A DNA stretch of 64,000 nt, taken from positions 1,327-65,326 of the forward strand of contig CAZIHS010000002.1 in the NCBI GenBank assembly GCA_964538765.1, given 5' to 3'. The notes under the pieces are model-generated. The model made no database searches and had not been told where the DNA came from. It worked only from the letters and a program-made list of their open reading frames with translations. The DNA is from an uncultured Gammaproteobacteria bacterium (GTDB lineage: Bacteria > Patescibacteriota > Microgenomatia > UBA12405). The position numbers and the translations under genes are program-made. This document shows, piece after piece, positions 8,981 through 40,248 of the stretch. The stretch's first letter is position 1. Each line of letters begins with the position of its first letter.

Positions 8981-10051
8981 ATGAATGTTTCAGACTTATC
9001 AAACACGTTAAACGGTCTTAAGCAAAAACTTGACTACACCAAAAAGCTGAGTTTATTAGATGAGCTGGTTTTGCAGTCAAAAGATCCAAAATTGTGGCAG
9101 GATCAATCAAAAGCAACCAAAATACTACAACAAATTTCTGATTTAAGTTCTCAACTGGAAACTCTCACCAGTTTGGGTCGTGAGCTGTCTACTCTAGCCG
9201 AAATTGAGGAGTTTCTTTCCAAAACGGCCGACCCTTTTCTAAGTCAAAATCTTGTCGATCAGACATTACAGATAGAAAATAAACTTAAACAGTTGGAAAT
9301 ACAAACATATTTATCGCAACCATACGACCAAAATCACGCTTTTTTGTCGATCCACTCCGGTCAGGGCGGTACTGAAGCGATGGATTGGGCCTCAATGCTT
9401 CAACGGATGTATCAAAGATATTTTGAAATAAAAAATTGGCCGTTTTCTTTGCTTGACCTGACACCCGGAGAGGAGGCTGGAATTAAGTCGGTCTATTTCC
9501 AGATAAAAGCACCTTTTGCCTATGGTTATCTGCGGGGTGAACACGGGGTTCACCGGCTGGTCAGACAATCACCTTTTAATGCTGACAACCTTCGTCAAAC
9601 GTCGTTTGCCAAGGTTGAAGTTACCCCCGTATTTGAAAATACTGCCATGGTTGACATCAATCCGCAAGACGTCGAGTTTTCTTCATATCGGGCTGGTGGC
9701 CACGGCGGCCAAAACGTCAATAAGGTAAGCACTGCCGTTCGCCTAACCCATCGTCCCACCGGCATCACTGTCAGTTGTCAAAGTCAAAGGTCTCAAGACC
9801 AAAACCGGCTAATCGCTATGCAGTTGTTACAGTCAAAAATATTTACATTAGAAGAAGAAAAACGTCAAAAACAAAAGAAGGACATAAAAGGGGAGTTGAT
9901 TGTGGCCGGTTGGGGTAGACAGATTCGGTCCTACGTACTTCACCCCTATAAAATGGTTAAAGATCTTCGCACCAGGGTCGAAACAGCAAATGCTTCCTCA
10001 GTTCTTGATGGAAAACTCGAACAGTTTATTATCGCTGAATTAAAGCTATAA
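8981..10051 (+). CDS. prfB: Peptide chain release factor 2, contiguous ORF with no programmed frameshift
   Basis: GGQ motif '[13 protein letters not shown]' and the RF2-specific 'SPF' tripeptide ('RQSPFNADN'). The full-length 356 aa protein is in one frame. Confidence 0.9.
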
Positions 10052-11829: not shown

Positions 11830-12321
11830 ATGGATATACCAAACCTCTCCCAAACCCCCCCCGCCGATTCCTCGCCAACCACTCCAGACAACCAGAAGAT
11901 TTTAGTCTTAATCATAATTTTCATTTCAATTGCCCTGGGATTTTGGATATCAAGAGTCGCCCCGTCCTCAACTGTTTCGACTTCTTCCCTGAAAAACGGC
12001 ACTTCATTAACTGGCCAAACTGCTGTTAACACAGAAAACATTGCCGATCCTTCCGACATAAAAATCGGAGTGGTCTATGGTAACCTGGCTAAAAATTTTA
12101 CCGATTCCGCTGTTGGAGTTATAGAGTCGGGTAGTATTAACTCGGAAGGCACCCACATTTTAGTTCGGGAAGGGGGTTTGTCCCAGCGGGCCTCTCTAAC
12201 CTCCTCGGCCGTAGACCTTGACCTATTCGTTGGCCGTAAGGTAGAAGTAAAAGGGGAAACTAATGCTTCCAACAAAACTTCTTGGCTTATGGACGTTGGT
12301 TCAGTCAAGGTTTTGGAATGA
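11830..12321 (+). CDS. Hypothetical secreted/membrane-anchored protein
   Basis: Pro/Ser/Thr-rich N-terminus, a single TM helix ('ILVLIIIFISIALGFWI'), and a Ser/Thr-rich extracellular domain. Confidence 0.4.
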   Translation: MDIPNLSQTPPADSSPTTPDNQKILVLIIIFISIALGFWISRVAPSSTVSTSSLKNGTSLTGQTAVNTENIADPSDIKIGVVYGNLAKNFTDSAVGVIESGSINSEGTHILVREGGLSQRASLTSSAVDLDLFVGRKVEVKGETNASNKTSWLMDVGSVKVLE

Positions 12322-15031: not shown

Positions 15032-15637
15032 TCAGAAACCTCGGGCCAGTTTTCTAATCACTATGGCCAATCCAATTGAAGAAAGTAGAATCAAACTTAT
15101 GGAAAAAACAGAAGTGCCGCCCGTCTCGGGAACTTCTTTGTTGCCAATAAAAAAGGAGGCGGTATCACTGTCATAAAGATCACCCACCCTTACTTCAGCT
15201 TTGTTTGTCAGCATTTTCCTGCCAAAACCGGAAGACAACTCTTCAACCTTTGCCTTAATCAGGTACTCTCTGCTTTCTCCTGGTCCCAAAGTAGAAATCT
15301 CCCAAGTAACAAGGTTTTTATCTTTTTGCCCGGGATACAAAATCAAAACTAAATATGAAGGCAAAAAGTCCTTAACCTTGATGTTTTGCAAACTTTCATT
15401 ACCTGTATTTTCTACTCTAACTTTATATTCAACTATCTCGTTTTCAAAAAAAATCTTCTGGTTATAGGAAATGTTGTCAAGATACTGGTTTATTCCCAGC
15501 TGGCCAACCTTCTTATCAATTACTATTGACTTTACGCTACCGCCTCCATATGTATATTGCGCCATCACCTTGCCGGCCAAACCAGAAAATATGGTCACTC
15601 CGGCCAAGAAATATAAGGCCACTGTTTTGAAATTCAT
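15032..15637 (-). CDS. Cell-wall-anchored surface protein: DUF11-like repeat domain plus LPXTG-type sorting signal
   Basis: N-terminal signal peptide. The C-terminus is 'VPETGG', then a hydrophobic stretch, then 'RKLARGF', which is a canonical sortase sorting signal. Confidence 0.7.
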   Translation of the reverse strand: MNFKTVALYFLAGVTIFSGLAGKVMAQYTYGGGSVKSIVIDKKVGQLGINQYLDNISYNQKIFFENEIVEYKVRVENTGNESLQNIKVKDFLPSYLVLILYPGQKDKNLVTWEISTLGPGESREYLIKAKVEELSSGFGRKMLTNKAEVRVGDLYDSDTASFFIGNKEVPETGGTSVFSISLILLSSIGLAIVIRKLARGF

Positions 15638-15721: not shown

Positions 15722-16450
15722 ATGACACCAAAGTTGAAAGAGCTTTCAGTCTTTTTTCCCTGTTATAACGAAGAGGCGAACCTGGAAACTACTTTTAACA
15801 AAACCCTTCCGATAATTAAAGAAATTGCCGATAAATGGGAAGTAATTATTGTTGATGATGGCTCAAAAGACAACACCGGGGCCGTGGCCCTAGGCATTCA
15901 AAATAAATATCCCGAAAACGTTAGAATTATCACCCACCGCCCCAACCGCGGCTATGGAGCAGCAATCAAAAGCGGCCTTTTTAACTCGCGCTATGAATGG
16001 GTGGTGTTTACCGACTCTGATGGTCAATTTGACTTTAACGACGTTCGGGAGCTTATCCAAAAACAGAAAATTACAAATGCCGACATGGTAATCGGCTACT
16101 ACCTAAACCGCCGCGTTCCATTATACCGGAAGATTGGGTCAAAGCTGTGGCAATTTGCCGTCGGGATATTATTTGGCCTTTGGGTTCGCGACATCGACTG
16201 CGCCTTCAAATTGATTAATCAAAAAGTAATTAAAAAGTTACCGCCCCTGACTTCCGAGCGGGGACCCTTCATTACCAGCGAATTTCTGATCTATTCCCAA
16301 AAAAATGGCTTTTCAATCGCTGAAGTCGGAGTCCACCACTTTTCCCGCCAGGCCGGTGAGGCCACCGGCGCCAAGCTAAACGTCATTCTCTCTGGCTTTA
16401 AAGATCTCTTCCGACTTTGGTTTAAGGTCACATTTTCGGCCAAAAAATGA
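15722..16450 (+). CDS. GT2 polyprenyl-phosphate sugar synthase (DPM1/GtrB/ArnC-like)
   Basis: 'LSVFFPCYNEE', 'VIIVDDGSKDNT' and 'FTDSDGQFD' match the GT-A DxD/DAD architecture of Pol-P-hexose synthases. Confidence 0.8.
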   Translation: MTPKLKELSVFFPCYNEEANLETTFNKTLPIIKEIADKWEVIIVDDGSKDNTGAVALGIQNKYPENVRIITHRPNRGYGAAIKSGLFNSRYEWVVFTDSDGQFDFNDVRELIQKQKITNADMVIGYYLNRRVPLYRKIGSKLWQFAVGILFGLWVRDIDCAFKLINQKVIKKLPPLTSERGPFITSEFLIYSQKNGFSIAEVGVHHFSRQAGEATGAKLNVILSGFKDLFRLWFKVTFSAKK

Positions 16451-16460
16451 CACATCAATT

Positions 16461-17897
16461 ATGACCCAACCAATATCAAAAAGGTTGGTTTTACTAACCC
16501 TCATCATTGTCCTCGCCGCCTTTTTCCGTCTATACCGCATCAATGATTATATGGAATACTTAGGTGATCAGGGCCGGGACCTTATTATCATCAGGGAGTT
16601 TCTAGTCAACAAAAACCTGTTTTTTATCGGTCCTCAAACCAGTGTCGGGAACATGTATTTAGGACCATGGTTTTATTATTTTATCGCTCCAAGCCTTCTG
16701 TTTGCCGGCTACAATCCGGTTGGACCGGCAATATTCACTGGACTTTTAGGAGTATTAACAATATATCTTGTCTACCATGTTGCCTCCCGGTGGTTTAGTG
16801 TACCCGTCGGGCTTGCCGCCTCCCTTTTGATGTCAATTTCGCCGGTAGTCATTAAATATTCAACTTCTTCCTGGAATCCCAACGTTATGCCCCTTTTTTC
16901 CTTGTTGTTCATCTATTTCCTATGCCAAAAACGCTATATTCCGGCCACAATTTCCTTTATTATGATAATTAATTCCCACTATTTAGGTATATTACTTTTA
17001 GCGCCGGCAATATTTATCCTCATCCACAACTATAAAACCAGCCAGCAAAAAATCCCGATATTTATCCGCCATTTAATTTTCCCGGCTATATTATTCATTA
17101 TCAGTCTTTCACCCCTGATACTATTTGATCTGAAACATCAGGGGCAAAATATCGGTGCGGTCCTACGTTTTTTTAGCCAGCGTGAAACCACCGTTAATTT
17201 AAAACCTTACAAGGCTTTTCCTTTAATTTTTCCTCTCACCAGACAAGTATTCGAAAGGTTGCTGTTGGGTAAAAACCACTTGGTGTCTCTAGTTGCCACA
17301 TTATTATTTCTCTTGGGCTCACTCATGGCCTTTATCCGTTTTCGCTTTTCCAACTATTATCTGAACCTAATATATCTTTGGATATTCACTGGCATTGTCG
17401 GTTTGGCGCTATACAAACAGCATATTTATGATCACTATTTTGGCTTTATTTTTCCGGCCATATTTATCCTAGCTGCCTACCTAATTGTCCAGGTTAAGTA
17501 CTCAACCGTCCGCTATATAATTATTGCCGTTTTAGTCATCCTTTCGTTAGTGGAAAATCCATTTCGCTGGCCGCCACCAAAACAACTCCAAACCAGTTCC
17601 CAAATCACCGACTCAATCATTGCTGACAGTCAGAACCTCCCCTTCAACTTTGCTCTTCTCGCCAAGCAAAACTATGACCCGCCCTACCGCTATCTATTTA
17701 TCCTTAAGGGCGCCCCGTTATATTCCATTGACCAAAAACTTACAAAGCAGCTATATGTTGTCTGTGAACCTTTTCAAACCGACTGCAATCCCATCAATAA
17801 TCCCGAGTGGTCTGTGGCGGCTTTTGGCTGGGGTAAGATCGCCAAGTCGTGGCAAATCAACGGCATCAGTATATACAAAATTGTCCACAATATTTAG
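16461..17897 (+). CDS. Polytopic membrane glycosyltransferase, GT-C superfamily (subfamily A)
   Basis: 478 aa with about 12 TM helices. The N-terminal loop 'RINDYMEYLGDQGRDL...IGPQTSVGNMYLGPWFYYF' is shared with 17849 and 19371. Confidence 0.6.
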   Translation: MTQPISKRLVLLTLIIVLAAFFRLYRINDYMEYLGDQGRDLIIIREFLVNKNLFFIGPQTSVGNMYLGPWFYYFIAPSLLFAGYNPVGPAIFTGLLGVLTIYLVYHVASRWFSVPVGLAASLLMSISPVVIKYSTSSWNPNVMPLFSLLFIYFLCQKRYIPATISFIMIINSHYLGILLLAPAIFILIHNYKTSQQKIPIFIRHLIFPAILFIISLSPLILFDLKHQGQNIGAVLRFFSQRETTVNLKPYKAFPLIFPLTRQVFERLLLGKNHLVSLVATLLFLLGSLMAFIRFRFSNYYLNLIYLWIFTGIVGLALYKQHIYDHYFGFIFPAIFILAAYLIVQVKYSTVRYIIIAVLVILSLVENPFRWPPPKQLQTSSQITDSIIADSQNLPFNFALLAKQNYDPPYRYLFILKGAPLYSIDQKLTKQLYVVCEPFQTDCNPINNPEWSVAAFGWGKIAKSWQINGISIYKIVHNI

Positions 17898-19369
17898 AAA
17901 TAGTGAAGAATATTAGATTATCAACCGTATTAATTGTCATCTTCTGGCTCGCAGGGTTGTTTCTTCGAACCTACCGCCAAAAAGACCTTCTTGGATTTTA
18001 CTACGACCAAGGGTGCGATGCCCAAATAGCCTCAGACATTATCCACCTTCGTAATTTACCCGCCATCGGTCCAACCACCGGAATCCCCGGTTTGCATCTT
18101 GGACCGTTTTGGTTTTATCTTTTGGCACCCTTTTATTTTATAGGTTCTGGCAGTCCGGTAATTGCCAGTTACTTCATTTCGTTTATCGACAGTTTATCAA
18201 TCATCCTGTTATACCTAATTCTCAAAAAATATCACTCGGCCTCTGCCGGTTTGGTTGGCGCCGCAACATACAGCTTCAGCCGGTACCTAATAAGCTCTTC
18301 CCGGTGGTTTTCCAATCCTTCTCCGCTACCGTTTTTTACTCTTCTGGCAATATATCTTACTCTTGAAGTATTTTCACAAAAAAAATTTAATCGGCTGCCT
18401 CTGCTTTCTTTAGTTCTAGGATTATCTCTTCAACTCGAGGCCGCCAGCGCCATTTTTTTCTACCTTTCTCTCGGAGCATATACAGTTTTGCAGCTCTCAA
18501 CAGCCAAAGCTATTCCGCTTAAATATTACCGGAATGCTTTTGGTGTATTTATTGTTCTTCTCATCCCCCAATTTGCTTTCGAGCTAAAAAATAATTACCC
18601 CACCCTAAAGACATTGATGTTGTTTACAACCGGTCGGGTTGCCTCTTCGGGTACACCTTCGTGGTCGATCCCAAACATTAATTTTATCCAAAACAGGCTT
18701 CTAACTTATTACCAGTATTTATTCAGCAAGTTTGATGTTTCTGTATCAATATATTCCACCATCGCTTTAATGGTGTTTCTTTTTGGTTTGGTTCTATTGC
18801 TAAAGCGGCAATCTGATCAGCCGCTGGTCAGGCTAACTTGCGTCTGGCTGATAGTTCCGCTGACTCTCCTGCTGTTTTTTAGTGGCAATTATGGTCGGCT
18901 ATATGACTATTATTTGACTGGTTTTTACCCAAGCTTCGTTATCATTGTCTCTTTAATTTTGTTCTTGCCAAGCAAAATAATATCAAAGACAGTCTTAATC
19001 TTGCTGTTTTTTGTATATTTTATTTTTGGAAACGAAGTTCACCTCTATCATTATCTGACAGATGGAATTGACGGGCCCACCAATGTCGTGTTTGGCAATC
19101 AGTTTGCCGCGGTTTCCAAACTTTGTTCCATGCCGGAAGACTATCGGCTTGACATCTATGTTCCGCCGATTACGCCATTATCCTATGACTATCTTTTCGA
19201 CTGGCTTTCCTCCACAGGTTGCCGACGGCCATCTTCATCAGGTCCTCTCCTCCTACTCTACGAAACCGACCTGGTAAACCCCGGCAGTTTGCAAAAATGG
19301 CTTTCTAAACAGCCAAACCGCCTGCCGGTTGCAAAATTTGGCGGAGTCACTATTGAAAAAGTCAAATAA
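17849..19369 (+). CDS. Polytopic membrane glycosyltransferase, GT-C superfamily (subfamily A paralog)
   Basis: 'YYDQGCDAQIASDIIHL...IGPTTGIPGLHLGPFWFYLL' is paralogous to 16461. Both 17849 and the non-overlapping 17903 are GTG start candidates. Confidence 0.6.
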   Translation: MANQRHQYIQNCPQYLEIVKNIRLSTVLIVIFWLAGLFLRTYRQKDLLGFYYDQGCDAQIASDIIHLRNLPAIGPTTGIPGLHLGPFWFYLLAPFYFIGSGSPVIASYFISFIDSLSIILLYLILKKYHSASAGLVGAATYSFSRYLISSSRWFSNPSPLPFFTLLAIYLTLEVFSQKKFNRLPLLSLVLGLSLQLEAASAIFFYLSLGAYTVLQLSTAKAIPLKYYRNAFGVFIVLLIPQFAFELKNNYPTLKTLMLFTTGRVASSGTPSWSIPNINFIQNRLLTYYQYLFSKFDVSVSIYSTIALMVFLFGLVLLLKRQSDQPLVRLTCVWLIVPLTLLLFFSGNYGRLYDYYLTGFYPSFVIIVSLILFLPSKIISKTVLILLFFVYFIFGNEVHLYHYLTDGIDGPTNVVFGNQFAAVSKLCSMPEDYRLDIYVPPITPLSYDYLFDWLSSTGCRRPSSSGPLLLLYETDLVNPGSLQKWLSKQPNRLPVAKFGGVTIEKVK

Positions 19370-19370
19370 A

Positions 19371-20867
19371 CTATTCCGTGTACCCAAGAAGAGGATCGAG
19401 AAAATTTGCAGAATCATTGCAATATCCGTCTGGCACCACTCCTTCAAATTTTGGATAAATCAGCCCGAATCTTCCAAAACCAACCTCGGTTTCAGAGCTG
19501 ATTGTTGGGGGGATGGCTATATTATAAATCGGCACAAATTTACTGGGTTTAACCAAATTTATACCGTTGTACCAAAAAAGGTATCTAAACCCAACTCCGA
19601 CCCCCGGCCCGGCAATATAATTTACCGCCACGCATGGATAATTGTTCATATCAATATTAGTTTTTATAGTCTCAACCAATTTCCTTCTATAAAAATAAGA
19701 TTCACTGGAGTCAGATTTGGTCACCAGCCATAAACCGTTGAAGGTCAAATATAATATGGACATTAATATTAGCAAACGGTTTCCAAATTTGCTTATAGTT
19801 CCAACTAAAAAATACATAATAACCACCAGCGTATTGCTAAAATAGTATTCCGAAACTATCCTCTTTGAAAAAAATTGAGCCACCATAATCATTACCAGCC
19901 ACAGCCCAAACCACCAAGCGTAGCCTCGTTTACTGTAAGTAAATAAACCTACGATTACCATTAAAACTATTGCCATCCCAAAGATAAAATGGTCAATTTG
20001 ATCAAAGCCAAACAATAACCGGTGTTGCCACTCGTCTCCCGAAGCATCCAAAATTTTCTGAAGTTTTTGAAGACCTCCGGGGCCGCCCTGGTCAACCTGA
20101 CTGGCTGAAATAATTTGTCTGCTTTGGCTAAAACCGTGTTTTATTTCAAACAGCCAAAACGGACTGCTAACCGCCAAAAATAATATTATCGATAAGATGA
20201 AATATCTACAAATTATCTTGGTTATAAATTCCTTTAAAAAATTTTTAACCTCCAAGTAAAAGCTATTTTGCCCAACTCGAAACCTGGAGTATTCACCAAA
20301 AATGTATGCCAAAATCGGAATCGGAAGAATCGGCAACAAGGCAATGTGTATGTGCCAGGTGAAACCAATTAAAACACCATAGCCCAAAAGCCATCTGATA
20401 TCGCCTGCCGACAACCGGTATATAACGTATAATAACCAAACAGACCACAGGATGGTAGGCATGGTTGGTACCAGCCATCTGTCAAAGTAAACCGCTCCAA
20501 ACGAAAACGAATAAATAAAAGCCGCAATCAAACCCGCCCTAAACCCGGAAATCTTTGAAAACACATAGTAAATGCTGATAATCGTTAACCCGCCAAAAAT
20601 CAAACTTACCCCCATCATCGAGAGGGGATTCATCTTCCCAAGAAAATAAAATATCGATGTCAGATAGTACCAAAATGGGCCGATAAACACCCCCTCTACG
20701 CTTGTAATTTGTCCTGCCAGCCTTAGGTGGTGATTAACAAGAATATCCTTGGCAATCCATGAATATAAATCCTGATCGTGAGCGAAAGATAAACCTTTCT
20801 CAAAATTATATAACCTGAAAAGCAATCCCAAAAAAAGCAATGTCACCACAGCGAATCTAGCTTTCAC
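19371..20867 (-). CDS. Polytopic membrane glycosyltransferase, GT-C superfamily (subfamily A paralog, opposite strand)
   Basis: 'FAHDQDLYSWIAKDIL...AGQITSVEGVFIGPFWYYL' is the same subfamily as 16461 and 17849. Confidence 0.6.
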   Translation of the reverse strand: MKARFAVVTLLFLGLLFRLYNFEKGLSFAHDQDLYSWIAKDILVNHHLRLAGQITSVEGVFIGPFWYYLTSIFYFLGKMNPLSMMGVSLIFGGLTIISIYYVFSKISGFRAGLIAAFIYSFSFGAVYFDRWLVPTMPTILWSVWLLYVIYRLSAGDIRWLLGYGVLIGFTWHIHIALLPILPIPILAYIFGEYSRFRVGQNSFYLEVKNFLKEFITKIICRYFILSIILFLAVSSPFWLFEIKHGFSQSRQIISASQVDQGGPGGLQKLQKILDASGDEWQHRLLFGFDQIDHFIFGMAIVLMVIVGLFTYSKRGYAWWFGLWLVMIMVAQFFSKRIVSEYYFSNTLVVIMYFLVGTISKFGNRLLILMSILYLTFNGLWLVTKSDSSESYFYRRKLVETIKTNIDMNNYPCVAVNYIAGPGVGVGFRYLFWYNGINLVKPSKFVPIYNIAIPPTISSETEVGFGRFGLIYPKFEGVVPDGYCNDSANFLDPLLGYTE

Positions 20868-20899
20868 AATTGGATCATAACACGTATAATCACTTATAA

Positions 20900-21685
20900 A
20901 TGAAACCCAAAATTTCGGTAATTATTCCCTGCTATAACGAAGAAAACAACATAAAGCAGGGAATCCTTGGTCAGGTATACCAGTTTTTATCAACCCAAAC
21001 ATTTGATTGGGAAGTCTTGATATGCAATGACGATTCAACCGATAACAGCCCAAAATTAATAAAGGAGCAAATTTCACATTTTCCCGGTTTTCGCCTGATT
21101 AATCTTCCCCACGGAGGTAAACCTTCCGCTCTTTTTGGTGGAATTCAACAGGCCAAGTATCCCTGGGTTCTCCTGACCGATATGGATCAGTCAACTCCTA
21201 TCAAAGAAATCCATAAGTTATTGCCATATCTCGACTCTCATGACATAGTTATCGGTTCCAGAGGTAATCTTCGCCAGGGCCACAGTATAATCCGAAAAAT
21301 AGGTTCTTATGTATTTACCAATATCCGAATGTTGATAATGCTTCACCATATTGTTGACACACAGTGTGGTTTTAAGGCTGTCAAAACCACGGTTGCCAAA
21401 AAAATCTTTCCTCTTTTGGCTGCGGTCAAAACAGCCAGTCAAACAGTTGGTTGGAGGGTTTCATCATATGATGTCGAGATGTTATACATCGCCGACAAAT
21501 GGAAGCTCAAAATTAAAGAGGTTTTGGTCAATTGGAAAAATGAGGATTTATCAACCACAAAAGGGGATTTCATTACCCGTTATCGGAAGGAATCCGTACA
21601 AATGGCCAAAGAGGTTGTTCGCGTCAAATTTAGCGACCTTAGGGGATTATACCCTGACAAATTTGCATCCGATGACTCTTCCTAA
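20900..21685 (+). CDS. GT2 polyprenyl-phosphate sugar synthase-like glycosyltransferase
   Basis: 'ISVIIPCYNEENNI', 'CNDDSTDNS' and 'LLTDMDQS' are motifs of DPM1-like GT2 enzymes. Confidence 0.75.
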   Translation: MKPKISVIIPCYNEENNIKQGILGQVYQFLSTQTFDWEVLICNDDSTDNSPKLIKEQISHFPGFRLINLPHGGKPSALFGGIQQAKYPWVLLTDMDQSTPIKEIHKLLPYLDSHDIVIGSRGNLRQGHSIIRKIGSYVFTNIRMLIMLHHIVDTQCGFKAVKTTVAKKIFPLLAAVKTASQTVGWRVSSYDVEMLYIADKWKLKIKEVLVNWKNEDLSTTKGDFITRYRKESVQMAKEVVRVKFSDLRGLYPDKFASDDSS

Positions 21686-23222
21686 TATCAAAGCCACTCT
21701 TCCTCTCGTCGCTTTCTTGTTTGTGGACATATTATATTTGGCTACCCGCGTATTATCTCTCGATGTTTTTCCCATATTTGGCGACGAGGCCATTTATGTC
21801 CGCTGGTCCCAGATAATAAAATCTGTCGAGACATTGCGCTTTATCCCTCTCACCGATGGAAAACAACCGCTATTTATGTGGGTCACCGTGCTTTTCTTCA
21901 AGCTAACGCCCGACCCCCTTGTCGCCGGCCGGCTGGTATCAGTAATTGCCGGTTTAGGAAACATATTCTGCCTTTGTTTAATTGTAAACTTAATTAACCC
22001 TAAAAATCTAAAAAATATTCCAAATAATCCACTAAAACTTGTTGTCATGTGCCAAAGCCGCTTCAGTCCTGCTGCTCTAATTGTCTCAGCTTTTTATCTT
22101 CTATCACCCTACACTCTCTTTTTTGACCGCCTGGCGTTAGCCGATAACCTTCTTACCTTTTGGGGGCTTCTTTCGTTTGTTCTGGCCGTTCTTCTTTCAC
22201 TATATCCACGATTTGATTTGTCAATTCTTCTCGGCGTAGTCCTAGGTCTTGCCTATCTTACCAAGTCACCGGCCCTATTTTTTGTGATTCTCTCATTTAT
22301 TACCTATATTTTTTTAAACCGGCCCACCTTAAAAAATTACATATATCCCTTAATTTCCGTTTCAATCGCCTACTCAATATACAACCTCCTGCGGCTCGGG
22401 CCCCAATTTCACCAAATTGCGATTCGTAACCGTGACTATATTTGGCCTTTTTCAAGTATTGTTAAACACCCTCTAGATCCATTATTTCCCCATCTGACCG
22501 ATGCAGTTTCGCTCTACCGTTCATATCTTGGTCTCCCTGTTTTGGTCACATTTATTGTTTTTCTTATATTAACTATTCGCCGGTCTCTTGCTTCAAGGCT
22601 ATATGTTCCACTGATACTTTGGTGGGGTTTCCCATTATTTGTTAATCTTGCCTTTAGCCGTGTTTTCACCGCCCGTTACATTTTATACGCCACACCCTAC
22701 TTATTCATTCTTCTGGCTTTGATGACCCAACGCCTCGCCCTTAATCTTAAGTCAAACATTATCTACCTCGTCCCGGTTATTTCGCTTATTTACACCTTTC
22801 CATTATTTTTCCAGATCCTCACCAAACCACTTTTGGCTATTTCCCGTTTACCCGGAAACGAAAGTGGCTATCTTACCGATTGGACCTCGGGCTGGGGAGT
22901 TAAACCAGTCGCCCAGTATTTAATTAACCGTGCTAAAACATATAATGTTATTGTCGGAACCGAGGGTTATTTCGGCACTCTACCCGATGGCCTTCAAGTA
23001 TATACCAATAACGTTCCAAAACTGACGGTTTTTGGTGTTGGCCTGGAAATTGAAACTGTTCCAGATAAGCTGGTTGACGCCCGAAATCATGAAGACGACG
23101 TATACCTCCTCATAAACCGCTCACGTCACCACCTCAAGCCCAGTGCCATTTCTCTCCTCGATCTTGTCTACTCGTATCCCAAGCCAAACAATGACAGCTT
23201 AGACCTTTATCGGCTACGATGA
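21672..23222 (+). CDS. ArnT/PMT-like GT-C membrane glycosyltransferase
   Basis: 'LSLDVFPIFGDEAIYVRWSQ' is the ArnT/PMT DE-loop motif. The start was set to the ATG at 21672; the ORF-track start at 21351 is an out-of-frame overlap with the previous gene. Confidence 0.65.
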   Translation: MTLPNIKATLPLVAFLFVDILYLATRVLSLDVFPIFGDEAIYVRWSQIIKSVETLRFIPLTDGKQPLFMWVTVLFFKLTPDPLVAGRLVSVIAGLGNIFCLCLIVNLINPKNLKNIPNNPLKLVVMCQSRFSPAALIVSAFYLLSPYTLFFDRLALADNLLTFWGLLSFVLAVLLSLYPRFDLSILLGVVLGLAYLTKSPALFFVILSFITYIFLNRPTLKNYIYPLISVSIAYSIYNLLRLGPQFHQIAIRNRDYIWPFSSIVKHPLDPLFPHLTDAVSLYRSYLGLPVLVTFIVFLILTIRRSLASRLYVPLILWWGFPLFVNLAFSRVFTARYILYATPYLFILLALMTQRLALNLKSNIIYLVPVISLIYTFPLFFQILTKPLLAISRLPGNESGYLTDWTSGWGVKPVAQYLINRAKTYNVIVGTEGYFGTLPDGLQVYTNNVPKLTVFGVGLEIETVPDKLVDARNHEDDVYLLINRSRHHLKPSAISLLDLVYSYPKPNNDSLDLYRLR

Positions 23223-24976
23223 AAATAGCTCAAGCAATAACCCGAAGTTTAATAAAACACCGGGTTTTGATGATATATTTAATCCTTTTTCTTGTCACCC
23301 TTCCCGCCTTTTTCTTTCTATTAAAACCTGGGGAGTATTGGAATATGCACGATGATATGCAGTTAATCCGTCAACTGGAAATGGAAAAGTGTTTTCAGGA
23401 CGGTCAGTTTCCGTGTCGCTGGTCTCCTGACCTTGGGTATGGATACGGCTATCCTCTATTCAATTTTTACCCACCCCTTCCATACTATGTCGGGCAGGTT
23501 TTTAGGCTATCCGGCCAAAGCTTTGTCACCACCGTCAAATTAACCGCCATTGCTCAAATTATTCTATCGTCGCTGGTGATGTTTGTCTTAATTACGGCGA
23601 TTTTTGGCTCCACCGCCGGCCTAATCGCTTCAGTTTTCTACACCTACGCTCCCTACCATTTAGTAAACATCTACGTCCGGGGGGCCATGAACGAAGCCTG
23701 GGCAGGAGTATTTTTTCCATTAATATTCCTTTTTATCCACCGTCTTGTAACCTCGCCAAAACTGTCCAACTCACTTTTGCTCGCCCTCTCTTTTTCACTC
23801 CTTTTACAATCCCACAATCCTATGGCTCTGATTTTTCTACCGCCAGCTTTTGCCTGGTTTCTTCTCTGTCTTTTTCTCTCCCATTCCCGCCCAAAAAACG
23901 ATTTACGAAATACGGTATTTCATTTCCTTTTTGCCCTGGTTTTTTCCCTGTCGCTTTCAGCCTATTTTACTTTGCCGGTGATCATTGAAAGTTCTTTGGT
24001 TCAAATTGAGTCAATGTTTCAAAACTATTATCATTTCACAGTTCATTTTGTCAGTATTTACCAGCTATTTTTTAGCAGTTTTTGGGGTGACGGACCTTCG
24101 GTTTGGGGACCAAACGATGGCATGTCTTTTTCTCTGGGATATCTTCACTGGATATTACCAATAATAATATTATTATTATCAGTTTATGTTTTACTTAAAA
24201 AAAAGCGATACCAAAAACAGTTTGTAATTTTTACGTTTTTCCTTGTCATGGGCGCCGTCAGTACGTTTCTTACCCACCAGCGTTCTGTTTTTATTTGGCA
24301 ACTGATTACTCCTCTTCAAAAAATACAATTTCCATGGCGCTTTTTGTCTCTTTCTGCATTTTTTCTTTCACTTTCCACCGGCTATCTCTCTGTTCTTCTT
24401 AAACAAAATTCACTACTAAACAAATATAGGTTATTCATTGTTGCCCTGATCCTTGTCATTCTTATTTTCATTAGCCTTCCCCACCTTACCCCGGTTACAC
24501 ATGGTCCGATCACCGACCGTCAAAAATTTTCTGGAATAGCCTGGACAAACCAAATCACCAGCGGTATCTATGACTATCTTCCAAAAACTGCCTCTAAAGC
24601 CGCCTCTTCACCGCCCTCTGGCCTTGTTGAAAATATTGATCCTGGCCAACAAAATTATTTAGTCGAAAATATAACCCGAGGTACCGATTGGATAAGTTTT
24701 AATATCTATTTACCCCAAAGCGGTCGAGTTACCCTGGCTCAGCTTTATTTCCCAGGTTTTAAGGCATATGTCAACGGCAAGCCGGAAAAAATTCAAAGCG
24801 AACCTTTGCTTGGTCGGATGGTTTTGGACCTGCCGGGAGGCTCAAATCAGGTGTTTATTCGTCTATTCAACACTCCAATTCGTACTATATCAAATCTAAT
24901 TTCACTGATATCATGGACAGCTCTTATCATTTATTTTTTATTTCGTTTATGGATGCGGCTTTATCACAGGAACTAA
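23219..24976 (+). CDS. YfhO-like GT-C-type polytopic membrane protein
   Basis: 585 aa, many TM helices. Conserved 'NMHDDMQLIRQLEMEKCFQDGQFPCRWSPDLGYGYGYPLFNFY' segment. It is a paralog of 43177. Confidence 0.5.
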   Translation: MKIAQAITRSLIKHRVLMIYLILFLVTLPAFFFLLKPGEYWNMHDDMQLIRQLEMEKCFQDGQFPCRWSPDLGYGYGYPLFNFYPPLPYYVGQVFRLSGQSFVTTVKLTAIAQIILSSLVMFVLITAIFGSTAGLIASVFYTYAPYHLVNIYVRGAMNEAWAGVFFPLIFLFIHRLVTSPKLSNSLLLALSFSLLLQSHNPMALIFLPPAFAWFLLCLFLSHSRPKNDLRNTVFHFLFALVFSLSLSAYFTLPVIIESSLVQIESMFQNYYHFTVHFVSIYQLFFSSFWGDGPSVWGPNDGMSFSLGYLHWILPIIILLLSVYVLLKKKRYQKQFVIFTFFLVMGAVSTFLTHQRSVFIWQLITPLQKIQFPWRFLSLSAFFLSLSTGYLSVLLKQNSLLNKYRLFIVALILVILIFISLPHLTPVTHGPITDRQKFSGIAWTNQITSGIYDYLPKTASKAASSPPSGLVENIDPGQQNYLVENITRGTDWISFNIYLPQSGRVTLAQLYFPGFKAYVNGKPEKIQSEPLLGRMVLDLPGGSNQVFIRLFNTPIRTISNLISLISWTALIIYFLFRLWMRLYHRN

Positions 24977-26406
24977 AAGACACAACCACCAAAAACATTT
25001 TTTTACTCACTTTTCGTAATTTTGGTATTCAAGCCATTTCTACGATCGGATTTTTTATTCTTACCATTATTCTTGGGCCGGCCGAAGTCGGACTTTTCGC
25101 CGTAGTTGCCGAGGCTGTCGGAATACTGGGCTATTTCTCTGATTTAGGTTTAGCCTCGGCTCTGATTCAACAAAAGGAAGAGGTTAAGAAAGAAGAGCTG
25201 CAGACAACTTTTATTATTCAGCAGATATTGGTGGCGGTTGGGATTATTCTTGCATTCTTTCTCTATCGGCGCTATTCAACCTCTAAAGGTTATGGTTATA
25301 AAGAGGAGTGGATATTTTACTCGCTTTGTTTCGCGTTTTTTGCCGCTTCTCTCAAAACAATTCCTTCTGTACTTCTTGAAAGAAAACTAAACTTTAAAGT
25401 AATTTCCTCAGTTGACATTGCTGAAAACGTTGTTTTCTACCTGGTCGCTGTCATTTTTGCCCTCCTTGGTTTCGGCGCTATTTCTTACGCCTTCGCCTCT
25501 TTTTTAAGAAGTTTTCTCGGTTTAATAATGATTTATCGGCTTCAGCCGTGGCCTTTTGGAATATCCTTTGACCCAAAAAGCGCCAAAAAACTTTTTCGTT
25601 TTGGAATTCCTTTCCAGCTTAACTCATTTATCGCTGTTGCCAAAGACCGGCTTTCCAACCTTCTTGTTGCCGCTATTTTGGGTCGCGAGTCTTTTGGGCT
25701 ATTATCATGGGCTCAAAAGGGTCCCCGGGTGCCTCTTAGTTTTATGGACGCGGTTATGAGAGTAACCTTCCCCACCTTTTCACGCATTCAAAATCAAACC
25801 GACCTTCTCAAAAGATCCCTTCAAAAAAGTCTATTTTATATATCGTTTTTTATATTTCCTTCACTGGTAATGGTTTGCTTCATTGCTCCCGATATAATCC
25901 AGATAATTCCAAAATACAATAAATGGTTTGCCGCTATTGTTCCAGTCTATTTCTATTCTATGAGTTATGCTATCGCCGCCGTCACCACCCCCATCACTAA
26001 TGCTTTTAACGCTGTCGGCAAAATTACCCTCACCACCAGGTTTATGATTATGTGGACAATTTTAACCTGGCTTTTATACCCTTGGTTAAGTTACAGGTTT
26101 TCATATATTGGCACCTCCATGGCCGTCTTAATCGTTGGCTGCAGTTCGTTTTTCGTTTGGCTCTCGGCCTATAAAGAGTTCAATGTCAACGTTTTAAAAT
26201 CGATCCTTCACCCAACAATAGGTTCGTTTATTATGTTATTGTCACTAATTTTAATCAGTTTTAGTGTAGATAATAACTATTTGGCCCTGGTTCTAAAACT
26301 AATTACTGGAACTTCGGCTTATTTGTTGTACCAGTTAACTTTTTCCCGGCGACAAATCACTTGGTTTATAAACCAAATACCATGGCTAAATTTTATAAAA
26401 CGTTAA
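24949..26406 (+). CDS. Wzx-like oligosaccharide flippase (MOP/polysaccharide-biosynthesis family)
   Basis: About 12-14 TM helices. The N-terminus 'KNIFLLTFRNFGIQAISTIGFFILTIILGPAEVGLF' is typical of Wzx proteins. Confidence 0.65.
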   Translation: MDAALSQELKDTTTKNIFLLTFRNFGIQAISTIGFFILTIILGPAEVGLFAVVAEAVGILGYFSDLGLASALIQQKEEVKKEELQTTFIIQQILVAVGIILAFFLYRRYSTSKGYGYKEEWIFYSLCFAFFAASLKTIPSVLLERKLNFKVISSVDIAENVVFYLVAVIFALLGFGAISYAFASFLRSFLGLIMIYRLQPWPFGISFDPKSAKKLFRFGIPFQLNSFIAVAKDRLSNLLVAAILGRESFGLLSWAQKGPRVPLSFMDAVMRVTFPTFSRIQNQTDLLKRSLQKSLFYISFFIFPSLVMVCFIAPDIIQIIPKYNKWFAAIVPVYFYSMSYAIAAVTTPITNAFNAVGKITLTTRFMIMWTILTWLLYPWLSYRFSYIGTSMAVLIVGCSSFFVWLSAYKEFNVNVLKSILHPTIGSFIMLLSLILISFSVDNNYLALVLKLITGTSAYLLYQLTFSRRQITWFINQIPWLNFIKR

Positions 26407-28058
26407 CCATATTATTACTGGCTGTTTTTGTTATATTCCAGGCATTGCCGCTTATTAGAAGTGGCCTAAGCTACGATTTTGGTATTGGCTACTGGGGCCC
26501 AAATGGTCACGACGCCATCTGGCATCTTGCCCTAATAAAACAGATCAATAACCCTTTTAATATCAGCCACCCTGCCATCTCGGGGCAAAAACTGACCAAC
26601 TATCATCCGGCTTTTGATGTTCTGGTAGCCTTCGTTTCCAAAACAACCGGCCTTTCTGTTGAATTTCTCTATTTCCAAATTTTCCCACTAATTTCTTCAA
26701 CCCTGTTAGTTATTCTTTCCTATAAACTTGGACTAATTTTATATCAAAAACAATTTTGGGCCGTTTTTCTAGCATTTTTAGTTTCATTTTCAGGCTCATT
26801 CGGCTGGATAATAACCTTTATCAGAAACGGTCAATTTGGTGGCGAGTCAATATTTTGGTCGATGCAATCGGCCTCTAATCAACTAAACCCGCCATTCTCT
26901 TGGTCTCTTATTCTTATTCTGGTCGGTTTGATAATCATAAGTACGCTAAGAACGGCAAATAGCCGGTACTCTTATTTGTATCTTGGCCTGATTACTCTTG
27001 TTATTCCACTTGTCAAAACATATGCCGGATTGCTCTGGTATCCCTTATTATTGTTGTTCTCTATATCGCTCCACCAATCTAAAATATTTAAAGTTCTGCT
27101 GGTTTATGGGCTGATAGGTATTTATACTTTCATCCTGTTTAATCCTTCCCCAAAAAAACTTCTCTCTTTTTCCCCCTTTTGGTTTTCTCATTCAATGATT
27201 GAGTCACCCGACCGGCTTTATTGGCCCAAAATAGCTTCATTACGATACAACCTGGCTCTTAAGCCCAATTTTGACAAACGTCTTGTTCTCATCGAGTTGG
27301 CTCTGGTAGTTGTTTTTTTTATCGGCAATTTTGGTTTCAGGACACTCGGACTTTTATCAATTAAAAGACTGATAAACGACACCTTCTATCTGCCGATACT
27401 TATCGTTTCATTTTTAGCCTTTCTTATTCCGCTTATTTTTATTCAAAAAGGAACCGCCTGGAACACCATTCAGTTCCTGTATTACTCAGTGTTTCTGTTT
27501 AACCTATTTTTAACAAAACACCTTTCGTCAATAAAATCAAAAAATATGGCGTTATTCCTTGCCTTCCTAATTTCTATCCTGTCCATACTTGGAAACCTAA
27601 CCAATTATCAAAATTATTTCGGCTATCCACCTCCTTCAGCTGTTTTGAAAGAGGAAATTTCCGGCCTTAAATTTTTGAAAAATCAACCCGCGGGAGTTGT
27701 TCTGTCGTATCCCTACGATCCCTATCTTAAAAAGTCATTTACCCGCACCCCCATTCCTCTTTATGCCTACGAAACCACTGCCTATCTTTCAGCATTTACA
27801 GGAAAGATTTCATATCTTGCCGACGAAATGAATCTTGATATTTCAGGCTATGACTGGCAGTCTAGACGTCAACAGTCATTAATATTTTTTAATCAACAAA
27901 ACCCTATCGAAAATCGCGGCTTTCTCGTAAATAATCAAATAGACTATATTTATCTTGCTGGAAATCAGGTTGAATTTAACCCGACAAACCTTAAATATTT
28001 GTCCCTGGCCAAAATTTATGATAACGGCTATTCCATAATTTATAAAGTAAACCGCTAA
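26361..28058 (+). CDS. Polytopic membrane protein of unknown family (possible GT-C or polymerase)
   Basis: 565 aa and more than 12 TM helices. The conserved-looking loop 'GYWGPNGHDAIWHLAL' could not be assigned to a family. The start is either 26361 or the ATG at 26382. Confidence 0.4.
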   Translation: MVYKPNTMAKFYKTLTILLLAVFVIFQALPLIRSGLSYDFGIGYWGPNGHDAIWHLALIKQINNPFNISHPAISGQKLTNYHPAFDVLVAFVSKTTGLSVEFLYFQIFPLISSTLLVILSYKLGLILYQKQFWAVFLAFLVSFSGSFGWIITFIRNGQFGGESIFWSMQSASNQLNPPFSWSLILILVGLIIISTLRTANSRYSYLYLGLITLVIPLVKTYAGLLWYPLLLLFSISLHQSKIFKVLLVYGLIGIYTFILFNPSPKKLLSFSPFWFSHSMIESPDRLYWPKIASLRYNLALKPNFDKRLVLIELALVVVFFIGNFGFRTLGLLSIKRLINDTFYLPILIVSFLAFLIPLIFIQKGTAWNTIQFLYYSVFLFNLFLTKHLSSIKSKNMALFLAFLISILSILGNLTNYQNYFGYPPPSAVLKEEISGLKFLKNQPAGVVLSYPYDPYLKKSFTRTPIPLYAYETTAYLSAFTGKISYLADEMNLDISGYDWQSRRQQSLIFFNQQNPIENRGFLVNNQIDYIYLAGNQVEFNPTNLKYLSLAKIYDNGYSIIYKVNR

Positions 28059-36279: not shown

Positions 36280-36879
36280 ATGCTAAAAAAATTGGTTGCC
36301 GTTAACCTGTCACTTCTTATAATAATGGTGTTTTTACTGGTCATTATCCCCTCGGCTGTTATCACTAGATATCCAGGCCCGTCAAACCTTATTGGGGAAA
36401 CGATCCTGCCGCTCACTTCATCGTCCCCTCTGGTAATAAATATTGACCCGCCCAAATATCTAAATTCAATTAGTGTATTTTTAAAAAATCCACTAATTCA
36501 AGACAACCATTACATCTATTTTCAGTTAATTCAAAACGGGTTGACAATCAGAAACCTTGTTTTTAACGGCCAGAACGTCGGCGATCCCAGCTGGCTTACG
36601 GCCAAATTCGAGCCGTTATCGGCCCAGCAACCAATAACCATAACGTTTACCACCGAAAACAAAAACGACCAATCTCTTTACTACTATTCAGGTCCCGATT
36701 ATCTCCCCCTATATTCCAGCACCTTCCAAATTCCTAGCTTTAAAGACAGGTTAATCTACCAAACAAAGTTAAAACAAAACCAACTTTTGGCCCTTAACAA
36801 ACAATTTCTATTTGCCTATCTGTTTTTATTATCAATCATCGAGTACCTGTTATTAAAAAATGATCGTAAGACATATTAA
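36280..36879 (+). CDS. Hypothetical membrane-anchored protein with extracytoplasmic domain
   Basis: One N-terminal TM helix, about 150 aa of non-hydrophobic domain, and a C-terminal hydrophobic segment. Confidence 0.35.
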   Translation: MLKKLVAVNLSLLIIMVFLLVIIPSAVITRYPGPSNLIGETILPLTSSSPLVINIDPPKYLNSISVFLKNPLIQDNHYIYFQLIQNGLTIRNLVFNGQNVGDPSWLTAKFEPLSAQQPITITFTTENKNDQSLYYYSGPDYLPLYSSTFQIPSFKDRLIYQTKLKQNQLLALNKQFLFAYLFLLSIIEYLLLKNDRKTY

Positions 36880-38584: not shown

Positions 38585-40248
38585 TCCAACGTCACCAGCA
38601 TCCCCGAGTTGTATTTTGAGATAGCTGAAGGTAAATAATATAGTGTTGAATAAGGCACCGAATAAATTTCCTCTCTTGCCGTATTGTCCTGCATCCACAA
38701 AATTGTTTTACGAAGATACTTGTCTTCAACGTAGTTAATTTTTCTGAATTCAAATTTCCCAAAGTCAAAATCTAAGTTACCATCTTTTGACCCTATCAGC
38801 TCACGATAATTTGCCAGTTTCTGGATGTAAAAAGGATTATATCTTAAATAAAAAAGCATAAAAATATAATTTTGAGCCTGCGGAGAATCAATTATTACAC
38901 GATCATAGTTATTCAGTATGGGCATAATTATTTTCAATCCTTGTCTATATCCTCCAGGCTGAAACTCGCCATTATTTTCCCAAATCGAATAAACATATTC
39001 GCTGTTAACTACAAACGCCAACTGCCACAAAACAAACACGGTAAACAGGATTTTAATAATCAACCGTTTGTTCTCTAAAAAAGAAAATGTTGCCAGCACT
39101 ACAGCCAACTCAACTACCGGCACCATGTTTAAAGACCTTAAGTGATGAAACCAGTTCCAGGTTAACGCGGCAGGAAGAACACCTGCCAAAAACCAATAAA
39201 TCAAAAACCGAAACTTTTTTGTACCCAGCCTTTTTAGTACGTAAATAATGCCAGGCAGTAACATTATGTATTCCCAAAAACCCAGTAGTGAAAAATCAGG
39301 GGTATACTGCACTGACTTTCTAATCCAATGATACGCGGTTGAGCCAAAGTTAGCCACCGAGACGTAAGACAAAATATGTCCGGCCAGATACTCCATTAAG
39401 TAATAGGCCGGATTAATTCTTAGCCATTCCATCAATCCTTCCTTATACAATTCTTTAGGAGAAAAAGGGTAATATCTGCTAAATATATTTTCTTGTCTAA
39501 ACCTTTGCAGCGCACCGATAGATTTACCTGAGACCATCATTGGAGCTAAAACCAGCATTGTCAAAAAACATATCAAAAACAACCTTCTAAACAGGTCGCT
39601 GGATACAAAAAAACGTTTTTTAAGTTCAATAAAACGTCTCAACGGGTCTGTCGTTAAAAGCACCATCAAGACCGGAAAAGCCAATCTGGCCGAGTGGTAA
39701 CTATATGCCGCCCCGGCCATAAACAAAAACCCTGCCAAAAAGTTTAATTTTCGTTTGTTACCTAAAAACCATCTTAACAAAAAATACACTCCCCAGCTAA
39801 ATAAAGCCATTGAAACATTAGTTTCAAGCGCAATCCTTGAAAAATGGATTCGCCACGGCTCAAATGAAATCAATAGGCTAAATATAAATGAAACCATCGG
39901 CCTATTCGTAAATAAATTCAATATTAAAAAGAAAGCGACAATACTTAGCGAACCAAACACCGCCGAGGGCAATCTAACAGTTGACTGGTTTAACCCAAAA
40001 ATTTTAATAAACGGAATTGTGGTATAAGCGTAAAGAGCAGGCTTATAATCGTTAAAAGACCTGATATTTATTGGATACAAATTTCCCCATTCATCTTTAC
40101 CGTTGGTAGCAATTGAATAGGCGTTATAGCCAAGAGATGCCTCGTCCCAATTTAACGAATAAGGTGACTTATCTAACCACACCGATCTAAATATAAGCGA
40201 TACTAAGAACAACATTGTGGAAAATATCAATAAACCCGATTTAGTCAT
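38581..40248 (-). CDS. PMT_2/ArnT-like GT-C glycosyltransferase (close paralog of 44883/46480/48113)
   Basis: 'SLNWDEASLGYNAYSIATNGKDEWGNLYPINIRSFNDYKPALYAYTTIPFIKIFGLNQSTVRLPSAVFGS' is nearly colinear with the three tandem paralogs. Confidence 0.7.
   Translation of the reverse strand: MTKSGLLIFSTMLFLVSLIFRSVWLDKSPYSLNWDEASLGYNAYSIATNGKDEWGNLYPINIRSFNDYKPALYAYTTIPFIKIFGLNQSTVRLPSAVFGSLSIVAFFLILNLFTNRPMVSFIFSLLISFEPWRIHFSRIALETNVSMALFSWGVYFLLRWFLGNKRKLNFLAGFLFMAGAAYSYHSARLAFPVLMVLLTTDPLRRFIELKKRFFVSSDLFRRLFLICFLTMLVLAPMMVSGKSIGALQRFRQENIFSRYYPFSPKELYKEGLMEWLRINPAYYLMEYLAGHILSYVSVANFGSTAYHWIRKSVQYTPDFSLLGFWEYIMLLPGIIYVLKRLGTKKFRFLIYWFLAGVLPAALTWNWFHHLRSLNMVPVVELAVVLATFSFLENKRLIIKILFTVFVLWQLAFVVNSEYVYSIWENNGEFQPGGYRQGLKIIMPILNNYDRVIIDSPQAQNYIFMLFYLRYNPFYIQKLANYRELIGSKDGNLDFDFGKFEFRKINYVEDKYLRKTILWMQDNTAREEIYSVPYSTLYYLPSAISKYNSGMLVTLD

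Follow-up and report, generated by a model that had tools for sequence, protein, structure and literature searches.

A conserved Microgenomates gene cassette couples polyprenyl-phosphate sugar synthase-like proteins to three old subfamilies of GT-C glycosyltransferases

Are three neighboring and similar membrane protein genes copies of one enzyme, or do they encode three different enzymes? The question is raised by a 64,000-nucleotide stretch of contig CAZIHS010000002.1 (the whole of it is called the window below, and positions are counted from its first letter), in which genes at 16461–17897 (+), 17849–19369 (+) and 19371–20867 (–) lie between two genes of glycosyltransferase family 2 (GT2). 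We find that all three encode ArnT/PMT_2-like GT-C membrane glycosyltransferases. We propose, putting the reading with its whole mechanism at a probability of about 0.8, that they represent three anciently diverged subfamilies (clades A, B and C) that would transfer a polyprenyl-phosphate-linked sugar to a cell-envelope glycan.

The clade A protein (478 residues) carries the motifs 'YLGDQGRD' and 'IGPQTSVGNMYLGPWFYY'. That of clade B has 506 residues when read from the GTG at 17849, or 488 from an alternative GTG at 17903, and its motifs are 'YYDQGCD' and 'IGPTTGIPGLHLGPFWFY'. The clade C gene is inverted relative to its neighbors and encodes 498 residues with 'AHDQDLYSW' and 'AGQITSVEGVFIGPFWYY'; in public record P0121 it is given as 492 residues, that is, six codons shorter than the open reading frame (ORF) 19371–20867 (–). 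All three ORFs are full length and free of frameshifts. In an all-against-all BLASTP comparison of the 53 long ORFs of the window, A matches B (E 5e-14, 33% identity over 165 residues), B matches C (E 1.7e-14, 32% over 129 residues) and A matches C (E 7e-7). These links span the N-terminal 100–165 residues, at 29–33% identity; aligned at full length, the proteins are only about 20% identical. The three-way alignment leaves D36, Q37, G57, T60, G68, P69 and Y73 (clade A numbering) invariant, columns that make up 'YLGDQGRD / YYDQGCD / AHDQDLYS' and 'IGPxTS..G..LGP(F/W)(W/F)(Y/F)Y'. The first-pass annotation of this DNA had described the three as paralogs with shared D-Q and GP..YY motifs, set between GT2 genes and separate from a group of window GT-C proteins with a D-E loop (seven members, here called DE-type). 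Each of these points holds: the ORFs lie exactly at the coordinates given, the flanking genes at 15722 and 20900 match Pfam Glycos_transf_2 (E 8e-29 and 2.5e-22), the two GT-C groups fall into separate BLAST and hidden Markov model (HMM) clusters, and the sole BLASTP link between them is a weak one from 16461 to 38581 (–), at E 5e-4.

Among 1.84 billion sequences a trio profile found 9,374 cluster representatives with E≤1e-3; roughly 4,400 reach E≤1e-10, and 782, matched over their full length, reach E≤1e-30. The motifs are conserved in this last set, so the similarity of the trio family is more than chance. The clade A protein has 1513 homologs, the best of them 52–58% identical and from Shapirobacteria/Microgenomates. 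Existing public annotation calls the homologs 'glycosyltransferase family 39', 'ArnT family' or '4-amino-4-deoxy-L-arabinose transferase-like'.

Which of these labels, if any, is right? All three proteins exceed the cut-off of Pfam PMT_2 (PF13231; 26.1 bits), A with 28.2, B with 26.9 and C with 29.2 bits, and diverse family members score up to 51.6 bits. An AlphaFold2 model, made for the clade A protein from a 41-sequence alignment, has a predicted local distance difference test score (pLDDT) of 88.1 and a predicted template-modeling score (pTM) of 0.90. It consists of a first transmembrane helix (residues 7–24), a loop with two short helices (33–50 and 70–81), some 12 further long helices, which brings the long helices to about 13, and a small C-terminal alpha/beta domain. 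Foldseek comparison of this model with the PDB placed ArnT (5f15/5ezm) first, at E 1.3e-6 and a TM-score of 0.60 although sequence identity is about 11–12%, and then ALG12, STT3/OST, AglB, ALG9, Pmt4/Pmt1-Pmt2, AftA and EmbA-EmbB; the top 23 matches are all GT-C-fold entries. The assignment of the trio to the GT-C glycosyltransferases made in the first pass is thus upheld. A membrane family of some other function was considered and rejected, since neither the Pfam scan of the trio nor the Foldseek search with the clade A model gave a significant match to any non-glycosyltransferase family. The eukaryote-type PMT enzymes (GT39) were also rejected as a home for the trio: the Pfam scan found no MIR domain in any of the three, the PMT domain (PF02366) is reached only by the clade B protein (26 bits, cut-off 22.7), and PMT structures align with the clade A model over only about 270 columns.

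The first extracytoplasmic loop, in which the shared motifs lie, had been thought distinctive. At their N-termini the family representatives bear a recurrent signature for each subfamily: '(E/T)FLGD(Q/E)GRD ... IGPxTSxGNMYLGPxYYY' for A, 'GFYYDQGRDA ... IGPTTGIEGIFLGPFYYY' for B and 'F(G/A/E)HD(Q/E)DLxSW ... LIGQxTSxxGVFIGPxxYY' for C. Inspection of the acidic residues of the loop, which the first pass had recommended, shows in clade alignments the loop aspartate (D36) in 47/47 sequences of clade A, 22/22 of clade B and 28/31 of clade C, the other three having Glu, and it is nearly invariant among 103 diverse family sequences. Clade A shows no variation at G68-P69, Y73 and W138-N139-P140; all 31 of 31 clade C sequences have G-Q at the site of the first 'GP'. 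The residue that follows D36 in clade A is Glu in 29 of 47 sequences (GDEGRD) and Gln in the other 18. When the 103-sequence family was compared by hhalign with the seven DE-type GT-C proteins of the window, the two groups aligned over 425 columns (99.1% probability, E 6.7e-19), with D36-Q37 on the D-E of 'WDE' and 'LGPWFYY' on 'YKPGLYVY'. This pairing and the common alternation of Gln and Glu show the D-Q loop to be the ordinary GT-C catalytic-loop motif. It is distinctive as a subfamily signature and not, as had been supposed, as a different kind of loop. The DE-type group has the catalytic-loop Asp in common with the trio family, and an aromatic motif downstream of it as well; it differs in the form that these take ('WDExSxGYNA ... 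DYKPxLYxY' as against 'GD(Q/E)GRD ... GPxTSxGxxYLGPxYYY') and in position, since only the trio family is placed directly after the first GT2 gene.

How old are the three subfamilies? Related loci were surveyed in one genome per GTDB species with the clade A alignment as query, so that all loci are anchored on clade A. At least 559 loci were returned; the best 80 make up the typed set, in which ORFs were assigned with clade-specific HMMs. Those with lineage-naming titles are almost all from Microgenomates (Shapiro-, Woese-, Ames-, Blackburn- and Collierbacteria). Upstream sequence is available for 75 loci, and in 70 of them the gene immediately 5' of clade A is a GT2, whose stop codon mostly overlaps the clade A start. 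Clade B comes next after clade A in 41/80 loci; 25 loci, the majority of them from Woese-, Ames- and related groups, have all three genes in the order A-B-C. After the A/B/C block there is, in nearly all loci, a second GT2 gene and then a DE-type GT-C gene. The cassette GT2-A-(B)-(C)-GT2-GT-C therefore recurs across the Microgenomates. Clade A orthologs are 36–58% identical to the window protein, window B scores 555 bits against the clade B HMM and window C 688 bits against the trio profile, and the clade motifs of this PMT_2-type trio are conserved clade by clade among the representatives. With mutual identity of only about 20% and the same order of subfamilies across the Microgenomates, the trio is an old set of three subfamilies. 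The suggestion that the locus holds multiple copies made by local duplication does not agree with these data, the order being kept in Woese-, Ames- and other Microgenomates.

The same survey accounts for the inversion of C, which had been ascribed to local rearrangement. Ten loci, all of them with 48–55% identity to 16461 (Shapirobacteria-like), have clade C on the minus strand, and 24 have it on the plus strand, 23 of these being more distant (36–46% identity); minus-strand C genes are recorded for loci L001–L005, L007, L008, L011, L015, L020, L021, L025, L032 and L081. Two long Shapirobacteria/Microgenomates contigs (L001 and L003) present the same picture as the window and share its upstream neighbors, namely a release factor, an LCP ligase, FtsE, FtsX and an M23 peptidase. 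What the window shows is a conserved single-gene inversion of Shapirobacteria-like genomes, without sign of recent rearrangement, and the ascription to a local event falls away.

Two further observations came from these loci. Between A and the inverted C, the Shapirobacteria locus L001 (at 9423–9875, +) and likewise L002 have a 150-residue ORF in place of clade B, which is absent; this ORF matches the IS200-like Y1 transposase family (26.1 bits, cut-off 23), a hint of mobile-element activity at the C-inversion junction in some relatives. Loci titled 'uncultured Gammaproteobacteria' or 'Pseudomonadales' (L006, L009, L010, L012 and about 30 more) carry a Microgenomates-type cassette at 40–55% identity, as does L028, titled 'Candidatus Methanoperedens'; these record titles appear to be wrong.

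What supplies the sugar? The first GT2 gene (15722–16450, +; 242 residues, GT-A fold) ends 10 nucleotides before clade A begins, and the second (20900–21685, +; 261 residues) is 30% identical to it. The closest PDB relatives of the 15722 protein are ArnC (9bhc/8vxh; E 3e-16, residues 5–217), then GtrB (5ekp) and the dolichol-phosphate mannose synthase DPMS (5mlz); those of the 20900 protein are GtrB 5ekp (E 7e-11), then DPMS 5mlz and ArnC. The best NCBIfam matches of the two proteins (ArnC, dolichyl-phosphate-hexose transferase, PpgS, AglJ and PgfS) all lie far below the equivalog cut-offs; for 15722 the best are ArnC, dolichyl-phosphate-hexose transferase and PpgS, and its ArnC score is 66 bits against a cut-off of 529. 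The earlier view of the flanking genes as polyprenyl-phosphate-sugar synthase-like is thus supported by their nearest relatives, and it is likely that 15722 supplies the donor for the trio and that 20900 does so for the GT-C genes downstream of it.

Evidence that 15722 and 16461 work together comes from natural gene fusions. Among the 150 best family representatives there are four proteins of 717–733 residues in which Glycos_transf_2 forms the N-terminal and PMT_2 the C-terminal domain (P0129; P0153, OGE72423.1, from Daviesbacteria; P0185, PIS09412.1, from Beckwithbacteria; and P0220, MFC1711812.1). Their GT2 part is 40–46% identical to 15722 over about 232 residues, and their GT-C part belongs to clade A, with 33–42% identity to 16461. 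The fusions come from Daviesbacteria (four contigs and a 729-residue sister sequence), Beckwithbacteria (two contigs) and further Patescibacteria, and their presence on several independent contigs makes single assembly errors unlikely. A related 629-residue protein (P0128) has a truncated GT2 part. The fusions constitute Rosetta-stone evidence for a joint function, and the relation of the adjacent or fused GT2 to ArnC, GtrB and DPMS suggests that the GT-C donor is a polyprenyl-phosphate-linked sugar. They also indicate topology: with a GT2 at its N-terminus the GT-C protein would begin in the cytoplasm, which would place loop 1 on the outside.

We accordingly propose the following sequence of events. 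On the cytoplasmic face of the membrane the 15722 protein, a GT2 without transmembrane helices, would use a nucleotide sugar to charge polyprenyl phosphate with a sugar residue. The lipid-linked monosaccharide would be flipped to the outer face, by a Wzx-type protein encoded at 24913 or by a flippase encoded elsewhere, and there A, B and C would add that sugar to a cell-envelope glycan, each at a position or on an acceptor of its own. D36 would be the catalytic acid/base, like the D of the DE/DxD motif in other GT-C enzymes. The second GT2, 20900, which has a promoter-like element of its own, would with the DE-type GT-C proteins downstream form a second donor/transferase module of the same envelope-glycan island, feeding the DE-type GT-C at 21672–23222 and possibly others. 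As acceptor we prefer a wall-linked polysaccharide or lipoglycan because the trio is surrounded by an LCP ligase, Wzx, many GT2/GT4 genes, a GT87-like gene, carbamoyl- and methyltransferases and B12-radical SAM enzymes. Part of this envelope context is itself conserved, the LCP ligase, FtsEX and the M23 peptidase upstream and Wzx downstream.

The flipping step deserves comment, since the locus had been likened to the classic three-component Gtr layout of synthase, flippase and GT-C. One part of that comparison stands, for a GT-C gene does sit beside a synthase-like gene; the other does not, as a GtrA-like flippase is absent from the 64 kb and the GT2 proteins have no C-terminal transmembrane helices. 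The only flippase candidate in the window is the Wzx/MOP-family gene at 24913–26406 (+; Pfam Polysacc_synt_3, E 3.5e-44; NCBIfam MOP flippase, E 1e-33), which is conserved downstream in L001 and L003. A review (PMC8035078) describes a variant in which GacI is a cytoplasmic GT-A, GacK a flippase of the Wzx type and GacL the GT-C, and the window fits this variant better than the classic Gtr system. In Gac-type systems the GT-A makes a C55-phosphate-linked sugar, the flippase moves the sugar-lipid and the GT-C transfers the sugar outside; a cytoplasmic GT-A without transmembrane helices and a Wzx-type flippase correspond to the window GT2 proteins and 24913, and the LCP ligase nearby is as found with wall polysaccharides. 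There are differences. The window lacks a small membrane protein of the GacJ (three transmembrane helices) or GtrA type, one GT2 is here followed by three distinct GT-C subfamilies, the trio is PMT_2-type without a Pfam match to YfhO, and relatives of the trio have natural GT2::GT-C fusions.

Several observations weigh against the proposal as a whole. The PMT_2 scores of the trio lie only 1–3 bits above the cut-off, and no NCBIfam model, ArnT models included, matches the trio at E≤0.1. A sequence search of PDB chains with each trio protein found none, even at E 10, and the 103-sequence family profile had no significant match there, so that the link between the family and known GT-C enzymes comes only from fold and profile-profile comparison. 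Neither 15722 nor 20900 has C-terminal transmembrane helices by hydropathy scan, unlike ArnC and GtrB. A hydropathy scan of all 64 window ORFs of 70–300 residues revealed no small GtrA- or GacJ-like protein with several transmembrane helices in the 64 kb, its only positives being FtsX, a DUF11 protein, the product of 36280 and two out-of-frame ORFs, and none of the window ORFs scanned has a Pfam match to GtrA. With such GT2 proteins and no such partner in the window, the proposed making of the donor at the membrane and its flipping are harder to account for. Many Shapirobacteria-like loci consist of GT2-A-GT2 only, without B and C, which makes B and C accessory and means that a strict three-step line is not universal. 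Lastly, the window copy of B has Cys in place of a nearly invariant loop Arg and may be impaired.

Could the acceptor be protein? The trio might be protein O-glycosyltransferases, in the manner of bacterial PMT or streptococcal PgfM, with secreted or surface-exposed proteins as substrates, among them the adjacent DUF11 protein. The Pfam matches are indeed to PMT_2 and PMT. The 20900 protein matches the streptococcal PgfS model, at 48 bits and far under its cut-off; a PgfS/GT-C protein glycosylation system is the subject of PMC12041528. Directly upstream of the cassette, moreover, lies a gene for a DUF11/CLIPPER-repeat protein (15032–15637, –) with an N-terminal signal peptide and a C-terminus of the sortase (LPXTG-like) type ('VPETGG', a hydrophobic stretch and 'RKLARGF'), and the arrangement is the same in L003. 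This protein is a possible glycosylation substrate. Its gene is absent from L001 and L002, however, and both of these keep the cassette. Three conserved subfamilies on one donor synthase better suit several glycan linkages, the LCP ligase, Wzx and the many cytoplasmic glycosyltransferases point to a polysaccharide pathway, and the best fold match is ArnT, with PMT matches limited to about 270 columns. We consider protein O-glycosylation the less likely reading, but a real alternative.

A second alternative concerns activity. One or more of the copies, B above all, might be non-catalytic partners that bind the acceptor or act as scaffold for an active GT-C; the idea that sugar transfer may require a second protein for acceptor recognition has been raised (PMC8035078). 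DQGRD is found in 39 of 40 clade B ORFs of the related loci, the sole exception being the window B protein with DQGCD, and the corresponding Arg is invariant in clade A (47/47). The Cys codon is TGC at 18014–18016, codon 56 of ORF 17849–19369; either a real loss or change of function or a sequencing error could lie behind it. All three window proteins nevertheless retain the catalytic-position Asp and the GP..Y motif, the ORFs run full length without frameshifts, and the Cys, which is peculiar to one genome and could be an error, is no feature of the clade. A non-catalytic role is on this evidence improbable.

True ArnT orthology (GT83), with transfer of aminoarabinose or something similar to a lipid A-like or other membrane lipid, was rejected as very improbable. 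It would agree with ArnT as best fold match, with ArnC as best sequence match of 15722 and with the public 'ArnT family' and '4-amino-4-deoxy-L-arabinose transferase-like' annotations. The ArnT equivalog models are not matched, however, no NCBIfam model reaching E≤0.1; the ArnC score of 15722 (66 bits) is far from the 529 required; and the window ORFs scanned include no arnA/B/D/E/F-like genes. Microgenomates have a Gram-positive-like envelope and are not known to make lipopolysaccharide, which also counts against this role. The likeness to ArnT (5f15/5ezm) thus consists in the overall GT-C fold (Foldseek E 1e-6, TM-score 0.60), a first transmembrane helix followed by an extracytoplasmic loop with two short helices and a conserved Asp at its start, the small C-terminal alpha/beta domain and an ArnC-like GT2 partner. 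The trio departs from ArnT in its loop, (G/Y/H)D(Q/E)(G/D)(R/L)D followed by a family-specific G(P/Q)xT(S/G)xxGxx(L/I)GPxxYY, in having no arn operon among the scanned window ORFs and in a GT2 partner without transmembrane helices. Scarcely credible, finally, is a recent tandem duplication and rearrangement in this genome giving redundant copies: the paralogs are adjacent with one on the opposite strand, and an IS200-like Y1 transposase ORF takes the place of B beside the inverted C in L001/L002, but full-length identity is only about 20%, each window gene is closer to its orthologs than to its window paralogs, the clade-specific motifs are conserved, and A-B-C order (25 loci) and C inversion (10 Shapirobacteria-like loci) are shared.

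If A, B and C are distinct glycosyltransferases fed by one synthase, is there a known system of this kind? In mycobacteria and corynebacteria the Ppm1 system has a GT2 polyprenyl-phosphate sugar synthase without transmembrane helices that feeds several GT-C enzymes (PimE, MptA/B/C, Emb, Aft), each responsible for a linkage of its own in an extracytoplasmic envelope glycan. The fold matches of the clade A model include AftA and EmbA-EmbB, and a GT87-like gene (35089) lies in the same island of the window. Apart from the shared fold, the sequences show no detectable relationship, and the window genes differ in being tightly clustered in one cassette, in a small-genome Microgenomates bacterium. 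A more specific version of our proposal, which we offer tentatively, is that A, B and C are successive enzymes of a Microgenomates-specific extracytoplasmic assembly line, building or branching an envelope glycopolymer from one polyprenyl-phosphate sugar, with no GtrA-type flippase; the sugar would be made by a GT2 without transmembrane helices, which in some lineages forms one chain with the first transferase. If true, this would be a counterpart, in the candidate phyla radiation (CPR), of the mycobacterial Ppm1/Mpt/Emb logic and would provide a handle on the unexplored cell envelope of episymbiotic CPR bacteria.

The cassette falls within the known logic of polyprenyl-phosphate-dependent extracytoplasmic glycosylation and leaves knowledge of GT-C enzymes unchanged. 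What is new is the three conserved subfamilies with their signatures, the Microgenomates-wide cassette, the shared inversion of C and the natural GT2::GT-C fusions; within the library searched, no relevant literature was found on CPR or Patescibacteria in connection with GT-C, GT39 or ArnT. Genomes of Microgenomates and other CPR bacteria measure about 1 Mb, the envelope chemistry of these organisms is essentially unexplored, and nearly 50 kb of the 64-kb window is devoted to glycan genes, with more than a dozen GT-C enzymes. The conserved cassette and the synthase::transferase fusions offer a concrete donor/transferase pairing for heterologous reconstitution, and the three subfamily signatures would refine the blanket 'GT39/ArnT-like' annotation.

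The junctions of the cassette bear on its expression. B (+) and C (–) converge with their stop codons one base apart (19369–19371), and no terminator-like hairpin was found between these stops, so that read-through from A-B would run antisense to C. For want of a credible family match, a 134-residue ORF on the strand opposite C (19329–19733, +) was dismissed. C and the second GT2 diverge across a 32-bp spacer, which contains the plus-strand promoter-like element TTCACA-16-TATAAT (20863–20890), which agrees with the sigma-70 pattern at 11/12 positions and is joint best in the region, in a scan that was not enriched overall (20 found, 16.7 expected); no comparable site for C was found. Beyond the second GT2, the ORF called mechanically at 21351–23222 starts at a TTG, overlaps the GT2 by 335 nucleotides and has no Pfam match. 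ATG 21672 is its likely true start, giving a 14-nucleotide overlap and a 516-residue DE-type GT-C ('FGDEAIY'; 21672–23222, +); HMM typing places the gene in this group here and at most loci.

From 21672 to 63678 the window is mostly a large glycan-biosynthesis island. Four ORFs of the window without a significant Pfam match are found at 26361–28058 (+), 40245–41501 (–), 36280–36879 (+) and 11830–12321 (+), encoding 565, 418, 199 and 163 residues, respectively; L001 and L003 have gene-sized ORFs at the positions of 26361 (after Wzx) and 11830 (before FtsE), a correspondence in position. The seven DE-type GT-C paralogs are at 28089, 36860, 38581 (–), 41547, 44883, 46480 and 48113. Two PTPS_related-like membrane proteins (23219 and 43177) are 33% identical to each other. 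The island further holds the GT87-like gene mentioned above, about a dozen GT2/GT4 genes, B12-binding radical SAM enzymes at 53449 and 59311, a methyltransferase at 54944, a carbamoyltransferase at 57653 and, at 61969–63678 (–), a 569-residue protein with C-terminal TPR repeats.

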